Assembly (NCBI GenBank): GCA_048938385.1
Contig: JBHLMG010000003.1
Coordinates: 1 to 64,000, forward strand
Origin: Promethearchaeota archaeon
Lineage (GTDB): Archaea; Asgardarchaeota; Hermodarchaeia; Hermodarchaeales; Hermodarchaeaceae
Direction of reading: 5' to 3'
DNA length: 64,000 nt
The translations under genes and the position numbers were made by a program. Each line of letters begins with the position of its first letter. Position 1 is the first letter of the stretch. Below the pieces are notes generated by a model that searched no databases, was not told where the DNA came from, and was given only the letters and a program-made list of their open reading frames with translations. Positions 14,551-27,816 of this stretch are shown in pieces.

Positions 14551-15162
14551 ATGGTGGCCCACAAACCTTGTCATGGAGGCGAAACATCTGCGGAGTTTCC
14601 AGTGTACCCGGTCTATGTCTATGAGCGAACCTGTAGGGCAATATTCGACTTTTGTCTGAAGGAAGCTATAGGTGCATCGCCACGCGAAGCTTTAGGAGTA
14701 ATCCTTGGGTTTCGTTGTGTCTGGCAGGGAACCAAATACATCCGTGTAACTGATTGGGCTACAGGACGAGTAGAGGCTAGCTTAGCACATGCTCGATTTA
14801 CTCCCGAAGGTATTCTCGAATACCGTCTTGCTATGCACGATCGTTATGGCACGAATCCGCATTCTCCCAGGGTAGTGGGCCTATGGCATTCGCACCCTTT
14901 TGGTAGCGACCCCCACTTTTCATCAATCGATCTACGAACCTTCTTCAACACTCCCTTCTGTGCTGAAGGAAATGTGTTCTTCCTTATTGATCCCAAAAGC
15001 CACATTTTCAAAGTGTATATGCTTCGACCTCGGCTTGATGAACCTGGATTACAACTGGAACAAGTTGACTGGTGTACCTACAAACCTTCCGTACCGACTA
15101 ATGATACTCCATTCGCAGAAGAACTCGCTACACCTCCTGAGGAGGAAAACACTGATGGCTAA
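14551..15162 (+). CDS. JAB/MPN+ (JAMM) metallo-isopeptidase
   Basis: REALGVILG catalytic Glu; VVGLWHSHPFGSDPHFSSID JAMM motif; LIDP. Confidence 0.9.
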   Translation: MVAHKPCHGGETSAEFPVYPVYVYERTCRAIFDFCLKEAIGASPREALGVILGFRCVWQGTKYIRVTDWATGRVEASLAHARFTPEGILEYRLAMHDRYGTNPHSPRVVGLWHSHPFGSDPHFSSIDLRTFFNTPFCAEGNVFFLIDPKSHIFKVYMLRPRLDEPGLQLEQVDWCTYKPSVPTNDTPFAEELATPPEEENTDG

Positions 15163-16021
15163 GGATTCTCCCACACCCATTGAGATTGATTTTTTTGAAC
15201 GGGACCAACATGATCGCACTCGTAGGTGGCTTGGAGCTACTAATTTGGATACGATTCGTCACTCCTCTGTCCTCATGGTAGGGGCTGGTGCGGTCGGCAA
15301 TGAGGTGTGTAAAAATCTCGGGTTATTAGGAATCGGAAAAATAGTCTTAGTAGATCCAGATAAGGTCGCAGCTTCGAACCTAAATCGCTGTGTTTTTTTT
15401 CGCTCAGGTGACCATGATGTGAAATTCAAAGTCGACGCTATCACAGAACGCCTACCAGAACTTGCTACAAGTACCGTGATCGAACCCCACCCTGTACCTA
15501 TTCAACAAGCACCCGATTCGGTCTGGAACACAGACCTCGTACTCGTTGGCGTTGACAACCATTATGCCCGGTTCTTGTTAAACGCAAAGAACCTAGGCTT
15601 AACTTCACCTCGGCCTATCATCAACGGCGCTATGGGCAGAGACTTCGTATCTGTTGAAGTACTTGCCCCTCCGCACACTGCCTGTTTGGTGTGTTCGTGG
15701 AGCAAGGATTTCTTAGATGGAGTGGTTGCTAACGAAGTTCGAACACGGTGTGATCCTTTCTTCGTTGATACCGTACCCCGTTTTCCCATGATCAGCTTCA
15801 TCACCTCTGTCGTTGGAGCCATTATGGCTTGGGAAGCGACTCGTATCCTCGTAGGGCTCGAACAATGGCAGAAAACCAGACAATGGCAAGAGGATTTAGA
15901 ACCCTCCCTGGGGCGTTTCATTCAATACAACTTGCAGCATCACGAGACGACGACTGGACCTATTCTGCCAAACCCTCAGTGCAGTGAAACCTTCTGTCGT
16001 AATAAACGCAAACGCACCTAG
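15155..16021 (+). CDS. E1-like (ThiF/UBA) ubiquitin-like-protein activating enzyme
   Basis: GAGAVGNEVCKNL, DPDKVAASNLNR, VDN..AR, Zn ligands CLVC and CSETFC, candidate catalytic Cys in RTRC. ATG at 15155 follows GGAGG; the ORF-track start 14900 overlaps JAB and is unlikely. Confidence 0.92.
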   Translation: MAKDSPTPIEIDFFERDQHDRTRRWLGATNLDTIRHSSVLMVGAGAVGNEVCKNLGLLGIGKIVLVDPDKVAASNLNRCVFFRSGDHDVKFKVDAITERLPELATSTVIEPHPVPIQQAPDSVWNTDLVLVGVDNHYARFLLNAKNLGLTSPRPIINGAMGRDFVSVEVLAPPHTACLVCSWSKDFLDGVVANEVRTRCDPFFVDTVPRFPMISFITSVVGAIMAWEATRILVGLEQWQKTRQWQEDLEPSLGRFIQYNLQHHETTTGPILPNPQCSETFCRNKRKRT

Positions 16022-16024
16022 CCC

Positions 16025-16897
16025 TTACGATGTCTGGATGCTGACGACTTGAGTAACCTTCCAAGTTGAACTAAGGTGAGGGGCAGCTGTGTTGGGCGGT
16101 TGCCTCCAGGTGACCTTGAACTCTTGATGAGACCGAATATCCATCCAATTCCCAATAATAATGGGAATGTGACGGTTAGTGGCTCCCAACCAGCCCACAG
16201 ATCCAAACCATGTTGGGTCCACGGGAATCCAATGGTTGCGGATCCAGACCTCACTCCAGCCATGGCGCTCCCAATGTTTCTTTGTTGAGGCAAAGCCAGA
16301 GATTAGTCGGGCGGGAATTCCTCTGGCACGGCATAACGCGGCAAACAATGCGGCATACTCTGTACAGTCGCCAACCTGATTTTCAATTGCAAATGCTGCT
16401 CCTCGCTCATGTTGTTGAGGTACATAGCGAAGTGTCTTTGTGACTGTACGCATCGCAGCTTTGACGAAGGAAACTATCTCTGTGTGGTTTTTTGCAATAT
16501 CACGGGCTAAATCTTTGATTAGATGGTGATGGGATTCGATGAAAAATTCAGGTTTCGTATACGACTGAAGCTGGCTTGGAATGGTGGGGTTTTGAACAGA
16601 CGGGGGTAGTTGGTATTGGACTGACCGATTTCGAACCAGAGCTGTGTACCCACAGCTAAAAGTCTCAAGTCCTGCTAGTTGGTGGCAAGTAAAATCCAAC
16701 CAGTGATTCCCTCTCAAATCCGTAACTTGTCGCCCAATGACGGGTTGAGGTTTAATATCAACGAGGTGTTGGTAAGGCGGAAAAGGTGGCGGGAAGGCCA
16801 GAAAGATTCGAACATTCGTTAAAGGGTTTATAGACGAATTAGCAATATTGGTTTGATAGGATACACGGTGCGCAAGTATAGCTGAGTCTGCAGTCAT
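16025..16897 (-). CDS. Transglutaminase-like (Cys-His-Asp) protein
   Basis: GDCTEYAALFAALCRARGIPAR, HGWSEVW, WIPVDPTW. Confidence 0.92.
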   Translation of the reverse strand: MTADSAILAHRVSYQTNIANSSINPLTNVRIFLAFPPPFPPYQHLVDIKPQPVIGRQVTDLRGNHWLDFTCHQLAGLETFSCGYTALVRNRSVQYQLPPSVQNPTIPSQLQSYTKPEFFIESHHHLIKDLARDIAKNHTEIVSFVKAAMRTVTKTLRYVPQQHERGAAFAIENQVGDCTEYAALFAALCRARGIPARLISGFASTKKHWERHGWSEVWIRNHWIPVDPTWFGSVGWLGATNRHIPIIIGNWMDIRSHQEFKVTWRQPPNTAAPHLSSTWKVTQVVSIQTS

Positions 16898-17280
16898 GAT
16901 TCCTGCCCTTTAACCTCGTTTTGCTCCCCCTTGCGTTTGGTATCATCATCGAGGAACACGACTCTCCCACCAGGTGAATGTGATGAGCGTCGCTGAACAT
17001 CACCAAGAAGAATTACCTTAGATCGTTCGCTGGAATCAGGTTCTACTACATCGCGCTGTAATCCGAGAAAGCGAGTGAAGTGAGGTGGATGGGCTTCGAC
17101 CCCTCGTACTATCGTTCCTGGACAAGTACCTGTTCCTGTTTCTAAGAACAGAGCACGACACGAGGGACACATGTAACTACCACAGGTCGTACAAATCCAC
17201 CACTGACTCCGAGCCTCCTCCAGCGACACATGAGCATCACAAGCCACACACTTCATGTGCGAAGCACCATGGACACTCAT
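16894..17280 (-). CDS. RING-like zinc-finger protein with disordered tail (putative E3)
   Basis: CVAC-x15-CTTC-x4-CPSC-x11-CP-x9-H; ATGA overlaps on both sides. Confidence 0.7.
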   Translation of the reverse strand: MSVHGASHMKCVACDAHVSLEEARSQWWICTTCGSYMCPSCRALFLETGTGTCPGTIVRGVEAHPPHFTRFLGLQRDVVEPDSSERSKVILLGDVQRRSSHSPGGRVVFLDDDTKRKGEQNEVKGQES

Positions 17281-17504: not shown

Positions 17505-18257
17505 CTACGAGTCATTATCATCGGTATCCAGTATTCGAACCTTCCTCTCATGTGAGGTATCACCAAGAATCCGTGGAGGTCGGCTTCCTGCTTGTCGCGA
17601 AGGAGGTATTCCTTCAAGAATTTTAATTCGCCGTTCGGGGACAGAGCGAGTGCCTTGGATTTGATGGCGTTCCTCCCATAATCGATCCAATGTAGTAACG
17701 ATGTTCTCAGCATCCGCCTCATACCACGCCATCGCTGTGGTGTTAAGTCCGTGGTCTGATTGAAACTGGGAGGGTGGTTCAACGCGATCGGGTTTTAACA
17801 AGACGAAGAACGGCAAGTCTTCAAGAATTCGATCTAGTTCACCACGAACTGAATAGCAGGCTGGTCCTGTGCCACTAGAGGATAACCGAGGGTGAAACAG
17901 GGGTGTTTCTGCAGTTGGGTGAATCATCCCAATGCTTTGCGGATATTCGCGGGGCAGGTCAAAGACAAACCGGTGTTCATACCGCAAAGCTCGATTACTG
18001 GTCAGTTGACTAGGTTTTTGAGTATATCCAGGGAGGTTTCGCATAGTAAATCCCACCCGTTTGAAAGCTCCATCTCGGTACCGGGAGAGGATGGTCACAG
18101 TGAAGTCATCATTACTCCAAGTAGTATCCTCACGGCGTGGAGGGCTAGGCATCCACCCACGGCGTCCATAGAAGTTATTTATGGAGTCAAAAAAAGTTTG
18201 AATCTGAGTTTCCACTCGCGCATTAAATAATTCCGGTGAGAACACAGGCCGGGTCAT
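17505..18257 (-). CDS. E2/UBC-fold ubiquitin-like-protein conjugating enzyme
   Basis: FVFDLPREYP, TPLFHPR (HPN equivalent), catalytic Cys in GTGPAC, LDRILEDL, GLNTTAMAWY (PLN.EAA..Y equivalent). Confidence 0.8.
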   Translation of the reverse strand: MTRPVFSPELFNARVETQIQTFFDSINNFYGRRGWMPSPPRREDTTWSNDDFTVTILSRYRDGAFKRVGFTMRNLPGYTQKPSQLTSNRALRYEHRFVFDLPREYPQSIGMIHPTAETPLFHPRLSSSGTGPACYSVRGELDRILEDLPFFVLLKPDRVEPPSQFQSDHGLNTTAMAWYEADAENIVTTLDRLWEERHQIQGTRSVPERRIKILEGIPPSRQAGSRPPRILGDTSHERKVRILDTDDNDS

Positions 18258-18305: not shown

Positions 18306-18623
18306 TCATCCGACTTCAGGCACCACATCCAAAAGGAACAGCTCATCATCCGTTACCTTGGGGTCGAGTTCACCAAAGGCAATTCCGGGGCTTAACCGTG
18401 TTGGCTCCGGGGCTTTACGAATCAAAACAAACTCAGGACGCTGGTTCCCAATTTTTGTTTCAGCCCATTTATCAATATTCACACCTTCATCACGGGCTTG
18501 GGTGACCAGGGTACGGATGACTTCTTCAACACGAGTATCTTCGTCAATGCCAATCCGAAATTCCTTTTGGCGGGGCTCAACATCCACGATGATTGAGCGC
18601 CAAAAACCTTCTTCATTACTCAT
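18306..18623 (-). CDS. Ubiquitin-like (beta-grasp) modifier ending in VG
   Basis: 105 aa with a strand-strand-helix pattern (IIVDV / FRIGI / TRVEEVIRTL), FVLIR, final strand LFLLDV then PEVG-stop; first gene of the E2 operon; RBS AGGTGA. Confidence 0.75.
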   Translation of the reverse strand: MSNEEGFWRSIIVDVEPRQKEFRIGIDEDTRVEEVIRTLVTQARDEGVNIDKWAETKIGNQRPEFVLIRKAPEPTRLSPGIAFGELDPKVTDDELFLLDVVPEVG

Positions 18624-18780: not shown

Positions 18781-18847
18781 TCACGGGCTAGTGGGACCTA
18801 TTGAATCAAGTAGTAATCGAATCAAGCGCGGGAGATTAGTCAGCACT

Positions 18848-21748
18848 ATGACCACTAGGCAGGAGACACCTCTCTCACCTCAATCACTCGTTTTTCGTCG
18901 TATCCGCCTAGTGAACTTTGTCATTCACCGTGACACCACCATCCAACTAGACGCTTCCCCAGTTGTACTAATTACTGGAGCAAACGGAAGCGGTAAGACT
19001 CTGATCCTCGACGCTCTCCTCTTTGCCATCGGCGTCGATTCCCGTCGCGCCCAAAAACAACGAAACTCCGCCTTCATTGGCCGCTTCAACAAACACGCAG
19101 AAGTTCAGCTCGACCTAAACAACTTCGTTCTAAACGGACGACGCGTGTTTCATAGCCCTGATAAAGCAATAGCTAAACTGCTGAACCAAGATATTGTAAC
19201 AATTCGCTTACGTATCCACGCCAATAACCGAATAACTTACTGGGTAAACGAGAAGCGAACATTGAATGGGCGACTGATTACCCGCAAAGACATTCAAAAG
19301 CTCTTTCAGTCTGCTGGACTTTTTGGAGATTCACCCCTAGCTGTAACTGAGGCTGAAACACTTGATCATTTTGCCTCTCAATCACCTCGACGGAAGTTTG
19401 AAACTCTTTTAAACGAAACAGGTTTGCGGAACTGGATGGAGAAACTGGAGGAAGCACGACTCCTCGTGCTCCAAGCCAAAGCGAATGTCAAACCCCTTCA
19501 ATATCGGATCCGCCACGAAGAACAGCGACTTGAAGTACTTAAAACCGCCTATGAGGCATTCCAACAAAAACAGCAGCTTTTACACAGACTTACTGAACTC
19601 GATGTGGAAGCCGCTTGGGCTGAAGTCACCTATCGCGAACAACTAGCCCATGAACTCCAAACCCAAGTCAACGGACTCACTAGCCAACTTAACCGTGAGC
19701 AAATGCAACTAGCAAAGCAAGACGACCGACGAGCACAGCTTATCTCAAAATTCGAAGATATGGAACATCGAAAAGTTAAGCTCCAAACCACAATGGAATC
19801 CCTGCGAGATCAACAAATGCAAGCACAGGGTCATCGTGTAGGTCTCGAAAATGAAGTTGAGGTGGTGAAATCCCAACTTAAACGCTACACCCGAGCCAAA
19901 GAGCGGAAACCCCCACGGTCAAAGGAAGCAACCTTCCAAGGCGAACTTGATGGCTTTCTCTCCGACCGAGATCGGTTGGATGATCAATTAGCAGTTATCC
20001 GACAAGATATTACTGCAACTGAAGAACTACTCTTTGCTAAACCGCAAAGGTATCCACGCTTTGAAGAAACCATCCTGCGAGCTTGTCAACAATTCCGAAA
20101 AGAATTAGATAATCTTGCCCTCGATGAAGTCGTTATTGGTCCACTCTTCACGCTCATCCGAATGAGGCAAGGCTCTGAGCAGCATGAAACTGCCGTGAAA
20201 CTAGCTCTAGGACGGTATACCTACGCTTTTATCGCGCTCAATCGCGACGCGTTTGGCGAAGCCAAATCCCTCTTTGATCGGTTGTGGCCCCATGACAAAC
20301 CAGACCTTGTTGTTGCTCGTACCAATCCCACCACGACTATCGCCCGCGATCGCCCACCTGTAGCACCCCCAGTTTTTGGTTGGGTGGGAGATCTCATCGA
20401 AGGTGATGTCTATGCAGTTAGCTTTCTGAGCCGAGTTGTCAATACAGCCGTAGCTGAGGAGTCAGCAGATGCTAACGAATTGGTGGATGCTGCCCAGCAA
20501 TTGAAGGGAAACATCATCACTAGTGACGGTCGAAGTTATTACCTACGCATTGGAGCCTTTGCACGACCTCCCCGTCCAGTTACTGTTAGTCTATCCATTC
20601 CTCTCCGAGAGCTAGGACTTTTACAGGATGTGGCTGACACCAGAGGACAACTCCGAAATCTCCGTGAAGAAGAGGCTCGGTTAATGCAGGATCGAATGCG
20701 CATTAACGCCGAAATTAGTCAATTGCGTATACAACTGCAAGAGCTTCGCCAAAGCTCCGCTACCCTTTCAGAAGAGGAACAGACCTCTATTGTCACCGAT
20801 TTAGAAAACCGTGCTCAAAATTTACACCAACAGATACTTGAACTGGACACCCAATGTGACACCCTTGGTCAGGACTACCAAGATTGCAATACTGAGCTCT
20901 CGCCGATAAACTCACAGCTTCAAAAACTCGACAGTCAACTCTATAACCTTGACCAACAAAGATTGCGACGAACAGGAGAAATTGAACGCCTCAACGAAGA
21001 AATCCGACGACGCGAGGATGAATACGAACATCTCACGATCCAAGTGAAAGAATTTCGTAACACTGCAAAAACCCTAGGACCTCAACCTTCAATGGTTCGA
21101 TCACCCCCTGCTATACGCGACGAGCAAATACAATTACAAGCCATGATTGAAACAATTTCGGCTACGGCGACAGACCATCAAGCCTTCCAAGAACAAGAAC
21201 AAGTGGTCCAACAACTCTATCAATATCTTAAGGACCGTCAGCTCCACTTGGAGAATCTAATGACCGATGTCGACCGACGGTTAACCCGGTGGCGAGAGGA
21301 ACTCGAAACCACAATTACGACCCTAAACCACCGGATGAACCAACTCCTAAGCCATTTCCTCAAACAGGTTAAATTGATTGTGCGGTACCCTGACGAACCT
21401 AGTCGTGCTGAACTCCACCTCCAACTCGCCATCAATCGAAAGGGCCAATGGCGAACTTATCAAGAAATGTCTGGTGGAGAAAGGGTTCTTGCTACTCAAA
21501 CATTCATTCTTGCTCTCCATACGCTAGCGAAGAGTCCCTTGCATGTGATAGATGAATTCACTCAGCGCCTCGATGAAGCCAGTCGTGCAGCGGTGTTGAG
21601 CATTGTACAACGAACACTTGGCTTGACTAAGACGGATGCTCACATCTATCCTCAGTTTCTGTTGATGGCTCCTTCCACAGTAGGTCTTCAAATCCCTGAA
21701 GCTATGCACCATGTCATCCTTCTCAAAGGGCAGGTGAAAACATCATGA
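18848..21748 (+). CDS. SMC5/6-like ATPase
   Basis: IRLVNFVIH, Walker A GANGSGKT, two long coiled coils flanking hinge VIGPLFTLI..ALG..AFI, signature MSGGE, Walker B VIDEFTQRLD, QFLLMAP (Pro at the H-switch as in SMC5/6). Confidence 0.9.
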   Translation: MTTRQETPLSPQSLVFRRIRLVNFVIHRDTTIQLDASPVVLITGANGSGKTLILDALLFAIGVDSRRAQKQRNSAFIGRFNKHAEVQLDLNNFVLNGRRVFHSPDKAIAKLLNQDIVTIRLRIHANNRITYWVNEKRTLNGRLITRKDIQKLFQSAGLFGDSPLAVTEAETLDHFASQSPRRKFETLLNETGLRNWMEKLEEARLLVLQAKANVKPLQYRIRHEEQRLEVLKTAYEAFQQKQQLLHRLTELDVEAAWAEVTYREQLAHELQTQVNGLTSQLNREQMQLAKQDDRRAQLISKFEDMEHRKVKLQTTMESLRDQQMQAQGHRVGLENEVEVVKSQLKRYTRAKERKPPRSKEATFQGELDGFLSDRDRLDDQLAVIRQDITATEELLFAKPQRYPRFEETILRACQQFRKELDNLALDEVVIGPLFTLIRMRQGSEQHETAVKLALGRYTYAFIALNRDAFGEAKSLFDRLWPHDKPDLVVARTNPTTTIARDRPPVAPPVFGWVGDLIEGDVYAVSFLSRVVNTAVAEESADANELVDAAQQLKGNIITSDGRSYYLRIGAFARPPRPVTVSLSIPLRELGLLQDVADTRGQLRNLREEEARLMQDRMRINAEISQLRIQLQELRQSSATLSEEEQTSIVTDLENRAQNLHQQILELDTQCDTLGQDYQDCNTELSPINSQLQKLDSQLYNLDQQRLRRTGEIERLNEEIRRREDEYEHLTIQVKEFRNTAKTLGPQPSMVRSPPAIRDEQIQLQAMIETISATATDHQAFQEQEQVVQQLYQYLKDRQLHLENLMTDVDRRLTRWREELETTITTLNHRMNQLLSHFLKQVKLIVRYPDEPSRAELHLQLAINRKGQWRTYQEMSGGERVLATQTFILALHTLAKSPLHVIDEFTQRLDEASRAAVLSIVQRTLGLTKTDAHIYPQFLLMAPSTVGLQIPEAMHHVILLKGQVKTS

Positions 21749-22542
21749 ACACGAATGATACTTCTACTCACCTGCGCAGTTTACCACGAAGGAAACCTTG
21801 GCGAAAATCATTCCATCAAAATTACAAGAGGTACCGGTTAACCTTCTACGGTACCAAGAACCTCATCATCACTCTTTGGAACCTGACGAAGAAATATGAG
21901 GGTGCCCTCAAACACCAAGAAGTAGTTCCCATCAAAGAAGCTGAAATAGACCGGGAAGAAGTAACTGAATCCTATAAAATCGTAGAGACACCCTGGGAAC
22001 GTGATCTCGATGGACGGTTCTATCATCACCTCGCCACTATGCAACACCGAAGGGATTCAAATCTTGCCATACCAGAAATTTCTCCTCATGAATGGATATA
22101 CTACTTTGCTAATGAAGTCAAACGACGCGCGACCCCCCTTTTGTATTTGGTCAGCCCTGAAAAAGCAGTACCACCCTTTGGACTTCCGCCCGAAGATGCT
22201 CCCGTCGCATTAGCTAACCCTCCCACACCGACTGACCAACAAGCCATGCAGAAACTCAAGATACCCTACGAAGAGTTATCCTATGATTCATTAGAACTCT
22301 ACCGTAACGCGCTGATTCAACGGTTGCAAGGCAAACGCATCAACTATTTTGATTTAGCCAATCATCTAACGAATTGGGAATTAGATCTGTTAAGTCAAAT
22401 GATAAGAGATAACACCATCAATGCAACCTTCGGAAAATCAGCGATTCAGTTTCACAAATCTTCACGGAATATAACTAGAAATCCAGAATTCGTCGCTGTC
22501 GCAATAGCTGCCCGAAACTATGAGGAGGTCTCGACTCAGTGA
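21745..22542 (+). CDS. Putative kleisin (Nse4/ScpA-like)
   Basis: ATGA-coupled to SMC; helical N-region, Pro-rich linker, C-terminal RINYFDL..LLSQMIRDNTI resembling the kleisin C-terminal winged helix. Confidence 0.55.
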   Translation: MNTNDTSTHLRSLPRRKPWRKSFHQNYKRYRLTFYGTKNLIITLWNLTKKYEGALKHQEVVPIKEAEIDREEVTESYKIVETPWERDLDGRFYHHLATMQHRRDSNLAIPEISPHEWIYYFANEVKRRATPLLYLVSPEKAVPPFGLPPEDAPVALANPPTPTDQQAMQKLKIPYEELSYDSLELYRNALIQRLQGKRINYFDLANHLTNWELDLLSQMIRDNTINATFGKSAIQFHKSSRNITRNPEFVAVAIAARNYEEVSTQ

Positions 22543-23183
22543 CAACAGACCCTGTCAAGCCCACCAACTCAGTAACCCCTCCTGAGACCCCAGATGAAGA
22601 AGAGGAACCAGAAGAACGCCATCTTCTCGGCCAACTGTTCGCTGCCCTTACTGCGCGGTACCGCAACGATGATGGGCAATTGAATATTGGTATTAAGCGC
22701 CAGGATTTACTTGAAGCACTTCACATTAACAAAACTGGGCTTGATCGCCTATTGGATCTCCTTCGACAGCAAATTATCCCTCTTGGGCTAGAACTGGTGG
22801 AATACCGGCTTGGTCGAGACACGCTTTATTGTATTCGTACAATATATGGGGTTCCTGGCGAACTCTCAGATCCTGAATACGCCGTTTTGGGTGTTATTAT
22901 TGCCAAAATTGAACAAGCGGGTCAAGGACGAAGGATACGCCGTATAGCCACTAAGGCACTTGAAACGGTACTCGTTTCCCGAGGTCGGCTTTCACGCTAT
23001 CAACTCGATCGAATTTTACGCCGGCTTCTGGAACTCGGATATATCTCTCGAAGTGCACGACGCATCGAATATGGTCCACGACTTGAACTGGAATTTGATC
23101 CTGAACGTAGAGAAGCAATTGCTAACGCCGCCACTATATACCTTGCGGGGGCAACATCAGCTACCGAGGATGATACGCGATGA
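22539..23183 (+). CDS. KITE-family tandem winged-helix protein (Nse1/Nse3-MAGE/ScpB-like)
   Basis: IKRQDLL..LRQQIIPLGLELVE (WH-A); LDRILRRLLELGYI..YGPRLELEF (WH-B; compare MAGE WGPRA..E). Confidence 0.72.
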   Translation: MTTDPVKPTNSVTPPETPDEEEEPEERHLLGQLFAALTARYRNDDGQLNIGIKRQDLLEALHINKTGLDRLLDLLRQQIIPLGLELVEYRLGRDTLYCIRTIYGVPGELSDPEYAVLGVIIAKIEQAGQGRRIRRIATKALETVLVSRGRLSRYQLDRILRRLLELGYISRSARRIEYGPRLELEFDPERREAIANAATIYLAGATSATEDDTR

Positions 23184-23638
23184 AGCTTGATCTGTCCACC
23201 GTAGGGATATCCTGCGTCGCTTGTGGAAAGCGCACCACGCTTGAACAGGCCATTCAGAGCGGGTGGCATCAATGTCTTCGCTGCCAGTTCTTCATTGATC
23301 CACAATGCCTCCACATAGTTCAAGATACCATGGGGGGCATTTGTCCCTCCTTCAGCCAAGGTGTGACCCGCCATGGCTTACAACGTGCAGACATTCCCTC
23401 TGAACAGATTCTCATCTTCGTTAAAGACCAATACCAAAAAGGACGAATTGGTGCCCTGATTGATTCATTGTTCTATACCAAACCCACTCCTCTGTTACCT
23501 CCACAACATGACGAGCCAAGTGCAACGATAACTGAAGAACCTCTAACGCGGGAAGAAATCTGGCGAAGGTATGGCCTCGTTTTAGTCCGGCGGACGCAAG
23601 GTAAGTGGGTGGCTTGGGAAAAGGTTGGCGTAACCTAA
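23180..23638 (+). CDS. RING-like zinc-finger protein (Nse1-RING-like spacing), paralog of 16894-17280
   Basis: CVAC-x16-CLRC-x4-DPQC-x11-CP-x8-H; ATGA-coupled to the KITE gene. Confidence 0.7.
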   Translation: MKLDLSTVGISCVACGKRTTLEQAIQSGWHQCLRCQFFIDPQCLHIVQDTMGGICPSFSQGVTRHGLQRADIPSEQILIFVKDQYQKGRIGALIDSLFYTKPTPLLPPQHDEPSATITEEPLTREEIWRRYGLVLVRRTQGKWVAWEKVGVT

Positions 23639-24066: not shown

Positions 24067-25035
24067 TCATTCAAGGTCGAGTTCTTGGACAATTTTTTCT
24101 ACAAGGATTGCTGCACTTTTCTTTGTTCCCGCTGATTCTGTTATTACTTCCTCTTCTGTGTCTTCAGGCAAAGGTGGTAATCCTGCTAATGTACGCACTA
24201 TCCCCGAAATAGCGTGGCGTGCTACAATGACTTCTGAACCTCCTGATAGTAGAACGATTAACCGCCCTTCGCAAACCTCCTCTGCAGTAGTCAGTAAGAT
24301 CTCTGTCATTGCTGGAAACGCATTCAGAGATAATTGAAACCCTCCGTAGTCGAGGGCATGAGCATCATGACCCATATTCCATAAAATCACTTGGGCTTGA
24401 TTCTTCTTCGCAAGGGGGGGAACTAATCGCTTAAGGGCGTCAACAAAAGAAGCGTCGCTACAGTTACCAGGAAAAGGCACATCCACATGTCGAGCTGAAA
24501 TGACATCGATTTCCTCATAATAACTTGCCTCGAAGTTCAGATGGTACACTCCCTCATCGTCACCGAGAATATCACGGGTTCCATCTCCCGGATGAGGATC
24601 CGTATCCACGATGAAGAAACGCTCTACCTTGAATTTTTGCTGTAAATTCCGAACTAACAGGGCTGAATTATTGTAATAACAAAAGCCCCAGAAAGAATCC
24701 CGGCTGGCGTGGTGTCCCGCACATCCAGTGAATACAAAGGCGTTTCGAGCTTCACCTTTCCAAACAGCTTCACCCGCTCGAACCGCCGCTCCGGCTGATA
24801 CCACTGATGCAAGGTGATATCCTGATTTTTTTACCAATTGAATATGCTGTGGGGTGTGAACTTGCGACAACAGCGTATCAGCTACCGTGGGCGCCTCTTC
24901 TACCATTACTCCTGGTGAATCTAAGGTCCCAGTCGCTTGTAAATACTCGAAGGCAGGTTTTACACGACCTGCAAGGACGGGATATCCTTCAGCAGACATT
25001 AGTCGATGATACAGCACAAGTGTTCTACCTTGCAT
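24067..25035 (-). CDS. Histone deacetylase-family amidohydrolase
   Basis: GHHA, GFCYYNN, DTDPHPGDGT, GHDAH..D, LSGGS. Start set at MQGRTL. Confidence 0.88.
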   Translation of the reverse strand: MQGRTLVLYHRLMSAEGYPVLAGRVKPAFEYLQATGTLDSPGVMVEEAPTVADTLLSQVHTPQHIQLVKKSGYHLASVVSAGAAVRAGEAVWKGEARNAFVFTGCAGHHASRDSFWGFCYYNNSALLVRNLQQKFKVERFFIVDTDPHPGDGTRDILGDDEGVYHLNFEASYYEEIDVISARHVDVPFPGNCSDASFVDALKRLVPPLAKKNQAQVILWNMGHDAHALDYGGFQLSLNAFPAMTEILLTTAEEVCEGRLIVLLSGGSEVIVARHAISGIVRTLAGLPPLPEDTEEEVITESAGTKKSAAILVEKIVQELDLE

Positions 25036-25173
25036 CCAATCACAACAAGACTCTACTATTACGGGCTTAGGATTAATACAATTGCATTTGTTTGTTTCCA
25101 ATTTTTCTCGCTGAATTGGATGTTTCCTCCCTCTCTATGACTGCCCTTAACCTATTAATGGACGAAGTAAGCG

Positions 25174-27816
25174 ATGATGGATGGGTTAAGTCAAAAAGAA
25201 ATAGGAGCAAAGGTGTATACTAATCAGAACCCCTCGGAAGAACCCAATTTGACAGCAAAGTTCCCAAAGGACTTCTCCAAAATAGAAGAATTACTTTCAA
25301 AGGGGCAATACCAAGAGGTGCTACAACGAATTGAGGTTGTGTTGCAGAAAGCCCGTAAAAATGAAAACCTCTTATTTGAATTTGATGCCCTGATCTTGAA
25401 GGCAGAGGCTAATTGGCGTCTAGGCAGACACGAAGAAGGGTACCGCTTTTTGATAGAAGGAGAGGGAGTTCTTGCACAAATTGAAACCCAGAAATTAGTG
25501 GATAGTACAGAAATCCAGCGAAGAAAAGCAAGATTAAGGCATCATGAGGGTATTTTCTACTGGTTTAGAGGTGATCTCGAAAAAGCCATAGATTCGCATC
25601 AACAGAGCTTAAGAATCAAAACAGAACTCGGTGACCGACGGGGCATGGCAAGGTCATTCAACAATCTTGGTCTCGTATATTGGTCAAAGGGTGATCTTCG
25701 CCAATCGCTAAACTATTACCAACAGAGCCTTGTTATCAATGAAGAGCTTGGCGACAAACGCGATATTGCGGTTACGCTCACAAACATGGGGAACGCGTAC
25801 ACCCGGTTAGGTGATCTCGAAAAGGCTCTGGAGCTTCAAAATCGGAGTTTAACCATCAGAGAAGAATTGGGAAACAAACATGATATTGCATTATCGATCA
25901 TCAACTTGGGTGCCGTTTTCCAATTAAAGGGGGATCTCAACCAAGCGTTAGAGTGTTATCAACGAGGCTTAGTTCTCTTTGAGGATTTGGGTATCAAACG
26001 CGATATTGCCTTGGCTCTGAACAATCTTGGAAATATTTTCGAATGGAAAGGCGATCTCGATCGAGCGCTAGACTATTTTCAACGGAGTTTAGATGTATAT
26101 GAGGAATTGGGCTACACAGAAAACATCGCCCTATTACTCTCTAACATAGGTGAGGTTCATCGAAAGAAAGGAAATCCTGAAACAGCACAAGAGTACTATC
26201 AACAGGGTTTGACGATATTCTCTGCGATGGAAAACGACCCTTTAATGGCGGTTATTCTTTTAGAACTCATCTGGGTTGGTATGGAAAAAGAAGATTCAAG
26301 TCTTATTGAAGAATCACTCGATAGGCTGAAACAAATCAATGAACGAAATGATAATCCAGTCATCGATCAACACTACCGTATTGCTACCGCCCTCGTCCTC
26401 AAACAGAGTAATCGGGTCCGTGAGAAAATGCAAGCGGAAACCATTCTCCAAGAAGTGGTCAACGAAGCAGTAGTCAACCATTCACTGACAGTCACAGCGA
26501 TGATCCATCTTTGCGACCTGCTCATCTCAGAATTGAAGATGACTGGAGAAGAAGAGTTGTTTGGAGAAATCAAAAACCTGACGGAACAGTTACTCAATAT
26601 TGCTGAACAACAAGCATCTCAGTTCCTACTCACAGAAATTTATCTCCTTCAATCTAAACTAGCCTTAATAGAACTTGATATGGGACAGGCAAAGAAATTA
26701 CTTGCAAAAGCATTGCAAATCGCCAATGAAAAGGGTTTAGACGGCATCGCCCGTACTGTGAATCAAGAATATGAACTGCTTCAGTCACAAGTGCAAAAGT
26801 GGGAACTAATCATCCAACAAAATCCTTCCAAGCAAGAAATGATTGATCAAACCAAACTTGATGATCTGCTCGGAAAAATGATTCAAGAGACCGTCACTGC
26901 CCTCATGGAAGAACGGGGGATTTCAGGGGCATTACCCAAGAAGAAATACAACCTGGAATATCATGACTTCCTCAAAGATAGCTCAAAAACCGTTAAACAC
27001 CATTTCCGTGTGGGCATAGCTCAAATTGGACTATCTCAGAATGGTGACATTCTTAATGAATTGTATCAAGAGCAGGCACCAGGACTCTTTGGATTACAAG
27101 GCGACAAAGTAGGTGTGGTAAAGGAAACTCTTAGAAACATGGTCGAGCAAGCCAGCTCCGAGAAGGTTAACATCCTTATTCTCCCAGAACTCACTGTTGA
27201 CTTGAATTATCCCGCATTACAGGCTGAAGTGTTAAACTTAGCTAAAAGCTATAACATGTATTTGATTCCAGGCTCTTATCACGATTCAAAAACTAAACAA
27301 AATTGGAGTATAGTGGTTTCTCCTGAAGGAATACTCTGGAAACAAGAGAAACACATACCAGCGATAATCCACTTTGAAAATAAAAGAATAACCGAAGGTA
27401 TTGACACAAGTTCGACACCTCGAACCATCATAGTCGGTAACACTGAATATGGACGAATCGCCATTGTCCTCTGCCGAGACTTCCTGGACATGGATTTACG
27501 CGTCGACTTGAAAAACTTCGACCCTCCCATAGACCTAATCATCAACCCTGCGTTTACTCCTGTAACCGCGGATTTCAAGGCTGCCCACTTTGATGCTCGT
27601 CGATCAATTTACGCGTACTGCTTTTTTGCTAATGTTGCCGAATTCGGTGATTCTCTAATCTACACCCCTGAAAAAGACCGGACCGAAAGAACAATCCCAC
27701 CGAGGGAAGAAAACCTAATTTACAAAGATATAGATCTGTTTCAACTTCGTTCAGAACGCAAAAAATGGGATCTCGAACAGAAGAAAAAACACGGATTCAT
27801 TCAAAGTACTCGTTAG
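25174..27816 (+). CDS. TPR-repeat protein fused to a C-terminal carbon-nitrogen hydrolase (nitrilase) domain
   Basis: About six 40-aa TPR units (NNLG..Y..KGDL..AL.YYQ.SL.I.EELG); ILPEL, QEKHIPA and VLCRDF give the E-K-C triad. Confidence 0.85.
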   Translation: MMDGLSQKEIGAKVYTNQNPSEEPNLTAKFPKDFSKIEELLSKGQYQEVLQRIEVVLQKARKNENLLFEFDALILKAEANWRLGRHEEGYRFLIEGEGVLAQIETQKLVDSTEIQRRKARLRHHEGIFYWFRGDLEKAIDSHQQSLRIKTELGDRRGMARSFNNLGLVYWSKGDLRQSLNYYQQSLVINEELGDKRDIAVTLTNMGNAYTRLGDLEKALELQNRSLTIREELGNKHDIALSIINLGAVFQLKGDLNQALECYQRGLVLFEDLGIKRDIALALNNLGNIFEWKGDLDRALDYFQRSLDVYEELGYTENIALLLSNIGEVHRKKGNPETAQEYYQQGLTIFSAMENDPLMAVILLELIWVGMEKEDSSLIEESLDRLKQINERNDNPVIDQHYRIATALVLKQSNRVREKMQAETILQEVVNEAVVNHSLTVTAMIHLCDLLISELKMTGEEELFGEIKNLTEQLLNIAEQQASQFLLTEIYLLQSKLALIELDMGQAKKLLAKALQIANEKGLDGIARTVNQEYELLQSQVQKWELIIQQNPSKQEMIDQTKLDDLLGKMIQETVTALMEERGISGALPKKKYNLEYHDFLKDSSKTVKHHFRVGIAQIGLSQNGDILNELYQEQAPGLFGLQGDKVGVVKETLRNMVEQASSEKVNILILPELTVDLNYPALQAEVLNLAKSYNMYLIPGSYHDSKTKQNWSIVVSPEGILWKQEKHIPAIIHFENKRITEGIDTSSTPRTIIVGNTEYGRIAIVLCRDFLDMDLRVDLKNFDPPIDLIINPAFTPVTADFKAAHFDARRSIYAYCFFANVAEFGDSLIYTPEKDRTERTIPPREENLIYKDIDLFQLRSERKKWDLEQKKKHGFIQSTR

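Follow-up and report, generated by a model that had tools for sequence, protein, structure and literature searches.

The 64,000-nt window analyzed here (the whole of the stretch taken from contig JBHLMG010000003.1 of a Promethearchaeota archaeon, forward strand) contains a four-gene operon encoding an SMC-family ATPase, a kleisin candidate, a KITE protein and a small protein with a putative zinc finger, hereafter the Zn protein. The best explanation of our results, which we hold to be probable though well short of certain, is that the operon is of the SMC5/6 type and that the gene of the Zn protein is its conserved, RING-like fourth subunit gene, likely encoding an E3-like adaptor. The N-terminal 55-60 residues of the Zn protein would most likely bind two zinc ions in the interleaved manner of the RING/U-box/ZZ class, and its C-terminal domain would most likely dock on the KITE/kleisin base of the SMC ring. 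Together, the KITE and Zn proteins would make up from two polypeptides the module that is a single chain in eukaryotic Nse1, and the likeliest role of the Zn protein would be to deliver a charged E2-like enzyme, either to the SMC complex or to DNA-bound targets of that complex. If this is true, a conserved kite-coupled RING-like gene, often found beside a cascade for the conjugation of a ubiquitin-like protein (Ubl), would date the connection of SMC5/6 with protein tagging back to the Archaea, and the small four-protein system is a setting in which this connection can be reconstituted.

The operon and its KITE-Zn gene pair

The four genes lie on the plus strand and are chained by overlapping stop and start codons. 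The SMC gene (18791-21748; 985 amino acids; Pfam SMC_N, 9.2e-25) comes first and is followed by the gene of the kleisin candidate (21745-22542; 265 amino acids), which overlaps each of its neighbors by 4 nt. The KITE gene (22539-23183; 214 amino acids) begins with GTG and shares the letters GTGA with the stop codon of the kleisin candidate, and the Zn gene (23180-23638; 152 amino acids), directly 3' of the KITE gene, begins with ATG and shares ATGA with the KITE stop codon, as read from the sequence. A preliminary description of this DNA had reported the last two as neighboring open reading frames (ORFs) for a tandem winged-helix protein and a RING-like protein that together resemble a split Nse1. 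Both ORFs were recovered at these coordinates, and neither is a chance frame, given their conservation among Asgard genomes and the retention of Cys and His residues in approximately 75 homologues.

A survey of 400 Asgard genomes, in which related genomes are not independent samples, detected full-length Zn matches and strong KITE matches in an identical set of 62 genomes belonging to eight families. The source names of the lineages with this pairing include Thor- and Heimdallarchaeota, and close homologues are named Thorarchaeota or Promethearchaeota. The order SMC-kleisin-KITE-Zn was found in every locus with enough flanking sequence (approximately 45 loci), in agreement with the immediate succession of the two ORFs noted earlier. 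In locus L003, the SMC and kleisin genes lie on one strand and the KITE and Zn genes are divergent from these; in L057, the SMC gene stands alone on the opposite strand and the kleisin, KITE and Zn genes are kept together. The KITE and Zn genes thus stay paired in split operons, which argues for a functional pair, and theirs is the tightest link in the operon. Distant kite operons in the families f14, f19 and f28 contain no Zn gene; the Zn subunit is therefore limited to certain Asgard lineages. Distant relatives of the kite were also seen in other SMC-like operons, one with an SMC of 835 amino acids (L059 in genome G116) and one a cluster with genes for 475, 407 and 268 amino acids (L060 in G307); the genes following these two kites are Cys-poor and encode no zinc protein.

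A phmmer comparison of the operon SMC with the PDB gave archaeal Smc (7.7e-17), Smc6 (1.2e-11) and Smc3 (4e-11) as the best matches, and a possible alliance with SMC5/6 is judged from the ranks of these pairwise matches. A second, longer SMC of approximately 1187 amino acids is encoded elsewhere in the genome (C23:132538-136101) and is presumably the canonical archaeal SMC. The 265-amino-acid protein had no Pfam or PDB sequence match, as a single protein or as a profile; its homologues, found by phmmer and hidden Markov model (HMM) searches, were encoded between the SMC and KITE genes in all loci, and its position and size suggest that it is a kleisin.

An AlphaFold2 model of the KITE protein built from 26 homologues (predicted local distance difference test score [pLDDT], 76.5) contained two winged helices, WH-A at residues ~22-101 and WH-B at ~111-178. 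Foldseek comparison with the PDB matched the model to archaeal ScpB (3.8e-5), MAGE-G1/Nse3 and Nse3 chain 7dg2_C (1.2e-4 each) and Nse1 (4.3e-4), with JetB and MukE ranking just under Nse1; these matches span E-values from 4e-5 to 2e-3, and the significant ones were mostly KITE proteins. The best solved match by VIA-align was Nse3 (7dg2_C), with a Z-score of 13.1 and a root-mean-square deviation (rmsd) of 2.9 A over 164 residues, ahead of ScpB (Z 11.2, rmsd 6.6 A, 161 residues) and Nse1 (5hvq_C; Z 10.4, rmsd 4.0 A, 159 residues). Judged by its model, the product of 22539-23183 is a KITE protein of the Nse1/Nse3 structural type, as had been proposed, and resembles Nse3 no less than it resembles Nse1. 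With a higher score to Nse3 than to Nse1, it has the look of a kite predating the duplication that gave Nse1 and Nse3, not of half an Nse1. The tandem winged-helix fold claimed for the ORF was borne out by the AlphaFold2 model and the Foldseek matches; however, the motif GPRLELEF, with which the protein had been said to end, closes the second winged helix at residues 179-186, and approximately 28 further residues come after it.

Sequence searches did not connect the kite with its eukaryotic counterparts. The SMC_Nse1 model PF07574 did not match the KITE protein (hmmscan, E<=1) and had no match genome-wide at E<=10, the MAGE model PF01454 matched neither the KITE nor the Zn gene, and PDB sequence and profile searches with the KITE protein returned nothing significant and no sequence link to Nse1, Nse3 or MAGE. 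A broad KITE profile search of protein representatives aimed at eukaryotic Nse1 and Nse3 retrieved only archaeal relatives of 108-243 amino acids.

The finger and the C-terminal domain of the Zn protein

The Zn proteins form a small, unannotated family of 40 clusters (profile search of 1.84 billion representatives, E<=1e-3), nearly all of whose members are 143-192 amino acids long and aligned end to end. The putative two-zinc, RING-like domain covers residues 12-65 (23213-23374, plus strand), with C12, C15, C32, C35, D40, C43, C55 and H65 as its predicted ligands. The string C12-x2-C15-x16-C32-x2-C35-x4-D40-x2-C43-x11-C55-P56 reproduces exactly the Cys pattern reported previously, CxxC-x16-CxxC-x4-DxxC-x11-CP.

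In a ligand table of approximately 75 homologous sequences, the eight metal-ligand positions were conserved and their substitutions were limited to C, H or D. The first ligand is C and the second C, H or D; the third and fourth are an invariant C; the fifth is C in the family and D in the clade of the query; the sixth and seventh are C. The eighth is a His 8-10 residues past the seventh or, in sequences without this His, a Cys at +5. Two homologues, P0105 and P0107, have lost ligands 1, 2, 5 and 6 together and kept ligands 3, 4, 7 and 8. This joint loss points to two interleaved, cross-brace sites rather than to sequential zinc ribbons; the ligand pattern of the family fits such sites, formed by positions 1, 2, 5 and 6 and positions 3, 4, 7 and 8. 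Read from the alignment, the losses in P0105 and P0107 say more about the fold class of the finger than any other result obtained here. Their loci (L055 and L056) are on contigs of approximately 1.2-1.4 kb, in which the partial ORFs upstream are not recognizable kites.

The same finger, with H at ligand 2, was also found fused to a long helical tail in P0112 (397 amino acids; L004, 3431-4624), which lies outside any SMC operon with FTR and peroxiredoxin genes as neighbors. A similar protein, again with H at ligand 2 and a long helical tail, is encoded at 7374-7892 of L048.

The AlphaFold2 model of the Zn protein reached a pLDDT of 76-81 at residues 11-50 and was poor elsewhere; the modeled part consists of short strands followed by a helix at residues 41-51. 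The weak top-ranking Foldseek matches of the finger were RINGs (RNF20, Bre1, TRIM32 and RNF4), together with ZZ and B-box domains and the SP-RING of Nse2 (2yu4). VIA-align gave a plateau of RING, U-box and ZZ domains at Z 3.5-4.2, in which the RING of Nse1 (7dg2_A, residues 176-231, Z 3.9, rmsd 4.1, 54 residues aligned; 2ct0, Z 3.5) shared its rank with numerous other RING, ZZ and U-box domains. Below the Pfam threshold, members of the family matched zf-RING_UBOX (1.9e-4), zf-C3HC4 (0.001) and, in 6 of the 28 members searched, zf-RING_4; the B-box, FYVE and IBR models were likewise below threshold. A profile search of the PDB with the family gave weak matches, mostly to RINGs, of which none was significant, and the Zn protein as a single query found no significant PDB sequence match either. 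From its ligands and its model, the finger is best placed in the RING/ZZ cross-brace class. The Nse1 RING model PF08746 did not match the query, did not figure in the top 25 of the 51 families matched by the 28 Zn members, and matched the genome only at an unrelated place; accordingly, neither Pfam models nor structure scores detected a particular affinity of the finger to the Nse1 RING. The two-zinc, cross-brace behavior of the ligands and the weak RING, U-box and ZZ matches agree with the RING-like finger of the preliminary description, whereas no homology with the Nse1 RING was detected and the ligand set is not C4HC3.

The C-terminal domain (residues ~70-152, approximately 85 amino acids; 23387-23635, plus strand), defined by the family alignment, is the most conserved part of the family, with F98, E126, W128, R138, G141 and W146 nearly invariant. 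Its pLDDT was approximately 32-54, and residues 57-152 had no usable match in the protein atlas. A hidden winged helix was considered for this domain, but hhalign found no similarity between the Zn and KITE families.

Ubiquitin-like conjugation genes beside the operon

A minus-strand operon, the Ubl operon, lies head-to-head with the SMC operon. It contains genes for a Ubl candidate of 105 amino acids ending in VG (18306-18623), an E2-like protein of 250 amino acids with the UBC-type motif PxxYP...HPR...G..C (17505-18257), a Zn-finger paralogue of 128 amino acids (16894-17280) and, as the last gene, a transglutaminase-like protein (16025-16897; Pfam Transglut_core, 8.7e-23); an ORF of 75 amino acids separates the E2-like gene from that of the paralogue. 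The plus strand, past the transglutaminase gene, carries a pair of genes encoding a JAB/JAMM peptidase (14551-15162; Pfam Prok-JAB, 6.2e-8) and an E1-like ThiF-family enzyme (15155-16021; Pfam ThiF, 1.8e-33). The likely start of the E1 gene is the ATG at 15155, which overlaps the JAB stop codon; the longest ORF listed for it starts at 14900, inside the JAB gene, and is probably overextended. E1 homologues have 284-310 amino acids.

The finger paralogue was matched to the Zn protein by phmmer (3e-6) and by the family HMM (1.2e-11). Its ligand 5 is Cys, so that its ligands are all Cys, and it has no C-terminal domain; the two finger genes are approximately 6 kb apart in sister genomes too. A profile of the E2-like protein from three homologues matched UBC E2 chains in 13 of 14 PDB rows (best E 0.037), across the motif PxxYP...HP[NR]...G..C, and Pfam UQ_con weakly matched a homologue in genome G082 (E 0.008); both matches are below threshold. 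The Ubl candidate is conserved with E1, JAB and E2-like genes in L043 and L045, where the Ubl and E2-like genes come after JAB and E1. More widely, JAB and E1 genes stand directly 3' of the Zn gene on the same strand in L001, L005-L014, L030 and L043-L046, with loci of f12 and f2 among those of this order.

In archaea such as Caldiarchaeum subterraneum, ubiquitin-like systems are encoded by operons that comprise E1, E2, Rpn11/JAB and a small protein of the RING type (PMC3082918, PMC6043591). By gene content, the Asgard genes resemble these systems, as those for JAB, a ThiF-type E1, the E2-like and Ubl proteins and a small zinc-finger protein are likewise clustered; however, the Asgard E2-like and Ubl proteins are below Pfam thresholds, and the cluster, which also has a transglutaminase gene, is tied to an SMC operon.

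Elsewhere in the source genome, a canonical UQ_con E2 gene (C1:49662-50027) adjoins a second ThiF-type E1 gene (C1:50066-51109). Ten f7 loci (L035-L040, L050 and L052-L054) encode a transglutaminase-core protein of approximately 535 amino acids at a distance of ~1-7 kb, mostly 5-7 kb, from the four-gene operon (Pfam transglutaminase-core match of 2.3e-20 in L035); the genomes of these loci are without the E2-like/Ubl family.

Alternative readings and known systems

Several results weigh against a RING-like finger with an E3-like role. Foldseek gave no significant match for the finger, the best being the RING of RNF20 at E 0.13; the best VIA-align match was a Saccharolobus 30S ribosomal protein (Z 6.2), with RING-type domains at a Z of just 3.5-4.4; and no Pfam RING model reached its cut-off with the query or the 28 family members. 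Many RINGs bind their E2 with an Ile or Val after the first Cys pair, and the corresponding residue in the Zn family is Ala or Gly. Families f7, f8 and f6 keep the four-gene operon without the E2-like/Ubl family, also in two closed genomes, so the Zn subunit is not dependent on this cascade. Finally, the contact between the KITE and Zn proteins on which the preliminary description depended is weakly supported by a prediction of two KITE proteins with one Zn protein, which gave an ipSAE score of 0.42 against 0.00 for the best control, with runs agreeing in at least 37% of contacts and a partner pLDDT of at least 68. Of 80 solved complexes, 58 reach the ipSAE mark applied, as do 2 of 110 mismatched pairs, and at 0.60 or under it is reached by just 7 of the 80 solved complexes but by both mismatches; this weak pass gives no interface.

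These results are shared in part by the strongest alternative, which we think unlikely but which deserves serious weight: the Zn protein would be a true SMC subunit whose finger is a ZZ-, PHD- or FYVE-type structural or reader module for DNA, a peptide tail or another subunit, with no ligase role, and the Ubl cascade would be a lineage-specific neighbor. ZZ domains (BIG, p62, Nbr1 and p300/Ada2) equal the RINGs in Z-score (3.6-4.0), and the FYVE and B-box models match the family about as weakly. The operons of f7, f8 and f6 would be expected on this view; the query clade has Asp at ligand 5, and the x8-10 spacing between ligands 7 and 8 is unlike a RING. Set against this are the JAB and E1 genes that follow the Zn gene in the same operon in several families, and the sole paralogue of the finger, which is encoded between the E2-like/Ubl genes and the transglutaminase gene. 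In addition, canonical UQ_con E2s exist in both closed f7 genomes (G015 and G016), which are without the private cascade. An E3-like adaptor working with the SMC5/6-type complex remains the reading that we prefer for the Zn protein.

The nearest known counterpart in architecture is eukaryotic Nse1, which belongs to the Nse1-Nse3-Nse4 module of Smc5/6; its variant RING sits next to WHB and has been described as C4HC3 (PMC8750328). In both cases, a tandem winged-helix kite is followed by a two-zinc, apparently cross-brace-type finger, in an SMC/kleisin/kite system tied to ubiquitin-like conjugation. However, kite and finger are on two polypeptides in the Asgard operon and on one in Nse1; the Asgard ligands are C4-D-C2-H in the query and, family-wide, C7H, the last two being separated by 8-10 residues, as compared with C4HC3; the Zn protein has an extra conserved domain of approximately 85 amino acids, of which Nse1 has none; and PF07574 and PF08746 do not match the Asgard pair, whose KITE protein is closer to Nse3. 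The arrangement may be regarded as an unfused analogue of the kite-plus-RING of Nse1, and in function perhaps of Nse2 also. "Split Nse1" is in this sense an architectural analogy, in which homology and fusion are unproven.

The preliminary description had gone further, proposing from the gene order that fusion of such neighbors could have produced Nse1. The matching of gene order and Nse1 domain order stands, and an origin of eukaryotic Nse1 in which a KITE gene was fused with such a RING-like gene on its 3' side and the C-terminal domain was lost is possible but unproven, and in our estimation improbable. The 4-nt overlap of the two genes, a kite of the Nse1/Nse3 type and the pairing in several Asgard families are what such an origin would start from. 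Natural fusions, which the same description had suggested looking for, were found neither among the 1.84 billion representatives nor in any of the loci or the KITE homologues, which reach 419 amino acids; nor did any sequence link to PF08746 or PF07574 or a distinctive structural match to the Nse1 RING emerge. The pair is present in just the 62 of 400 Asgard genomes noted above, the kite operons of f14, f19 and f28 are without the Zn gene, and an independent recruitment of a RING is equally able to explain Nse1.

Archaeal SMCs related to SMC5/6 have been described in TACK and Asgard lineages (PMC8665677), and archaeal SMC-kleisin-kite operons have been described as three-gene units (bioRxiv 10.1101/2024.01.07.573240). 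The operon in the window resembles these in having a second, shorter SMC beside the canonical one, a kleisin-sized gene and an Nse1/3-like kite, but differs in the conserved fourth, RING-like gene after the kite. In the second of these papers, the RING is called a eukaryotic innovation that is absent from archaeal kites, and the word "zinc" does not occur; in the literature that we searched, no description of such a fourth gene was found. A broader scenario, to which we give little credence, is that the ligase arm of SMC5/6 predates eukaryotes: Asgard archaea would have carried a RING-like E3 on the kite, served by a private E1/E2/Ubl/JAB cascade, and the finger would later have been fused to a kite paralogue to give Nse1.

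Nse2/Mms21, the SP-RING SUMO ligase, is likewise a separate, ligase-type subunit of an SMC5/6-type complex. SP-RINGs bind one zinc, and Nse2/Mms21, with its single zinc site, binds the arm of Smc5. That the Zn protein corresponds in function to Nse2/Mms21, as a separate RING-like ligase that would dock on the SMC complex by its non-finger domain and conjugate a Ubl other than ubiquitin, is the least probable of the readings considered: it would suit a stand-alone polypeptide made of a finger and a second domain, the weak Foldseek match to the Nse2 SP-RING and the single terminal Gly (VG, not GG) of the linked Ubl, but the Zn family conserves eight ligands, its gene is coupled to the KITE gene and not to the SMC gene and stays with the former in split operons, and the weak complex pass was with the KITE protein.

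Just downstream of the SMC operon lie a histone-deacetylase-family gene (24067-25101, minus strand; Pfam, 9.6e-44), convergent with the operon, and a gene for a TPR protein of 880 amino acids (25174-27816, plus strand).

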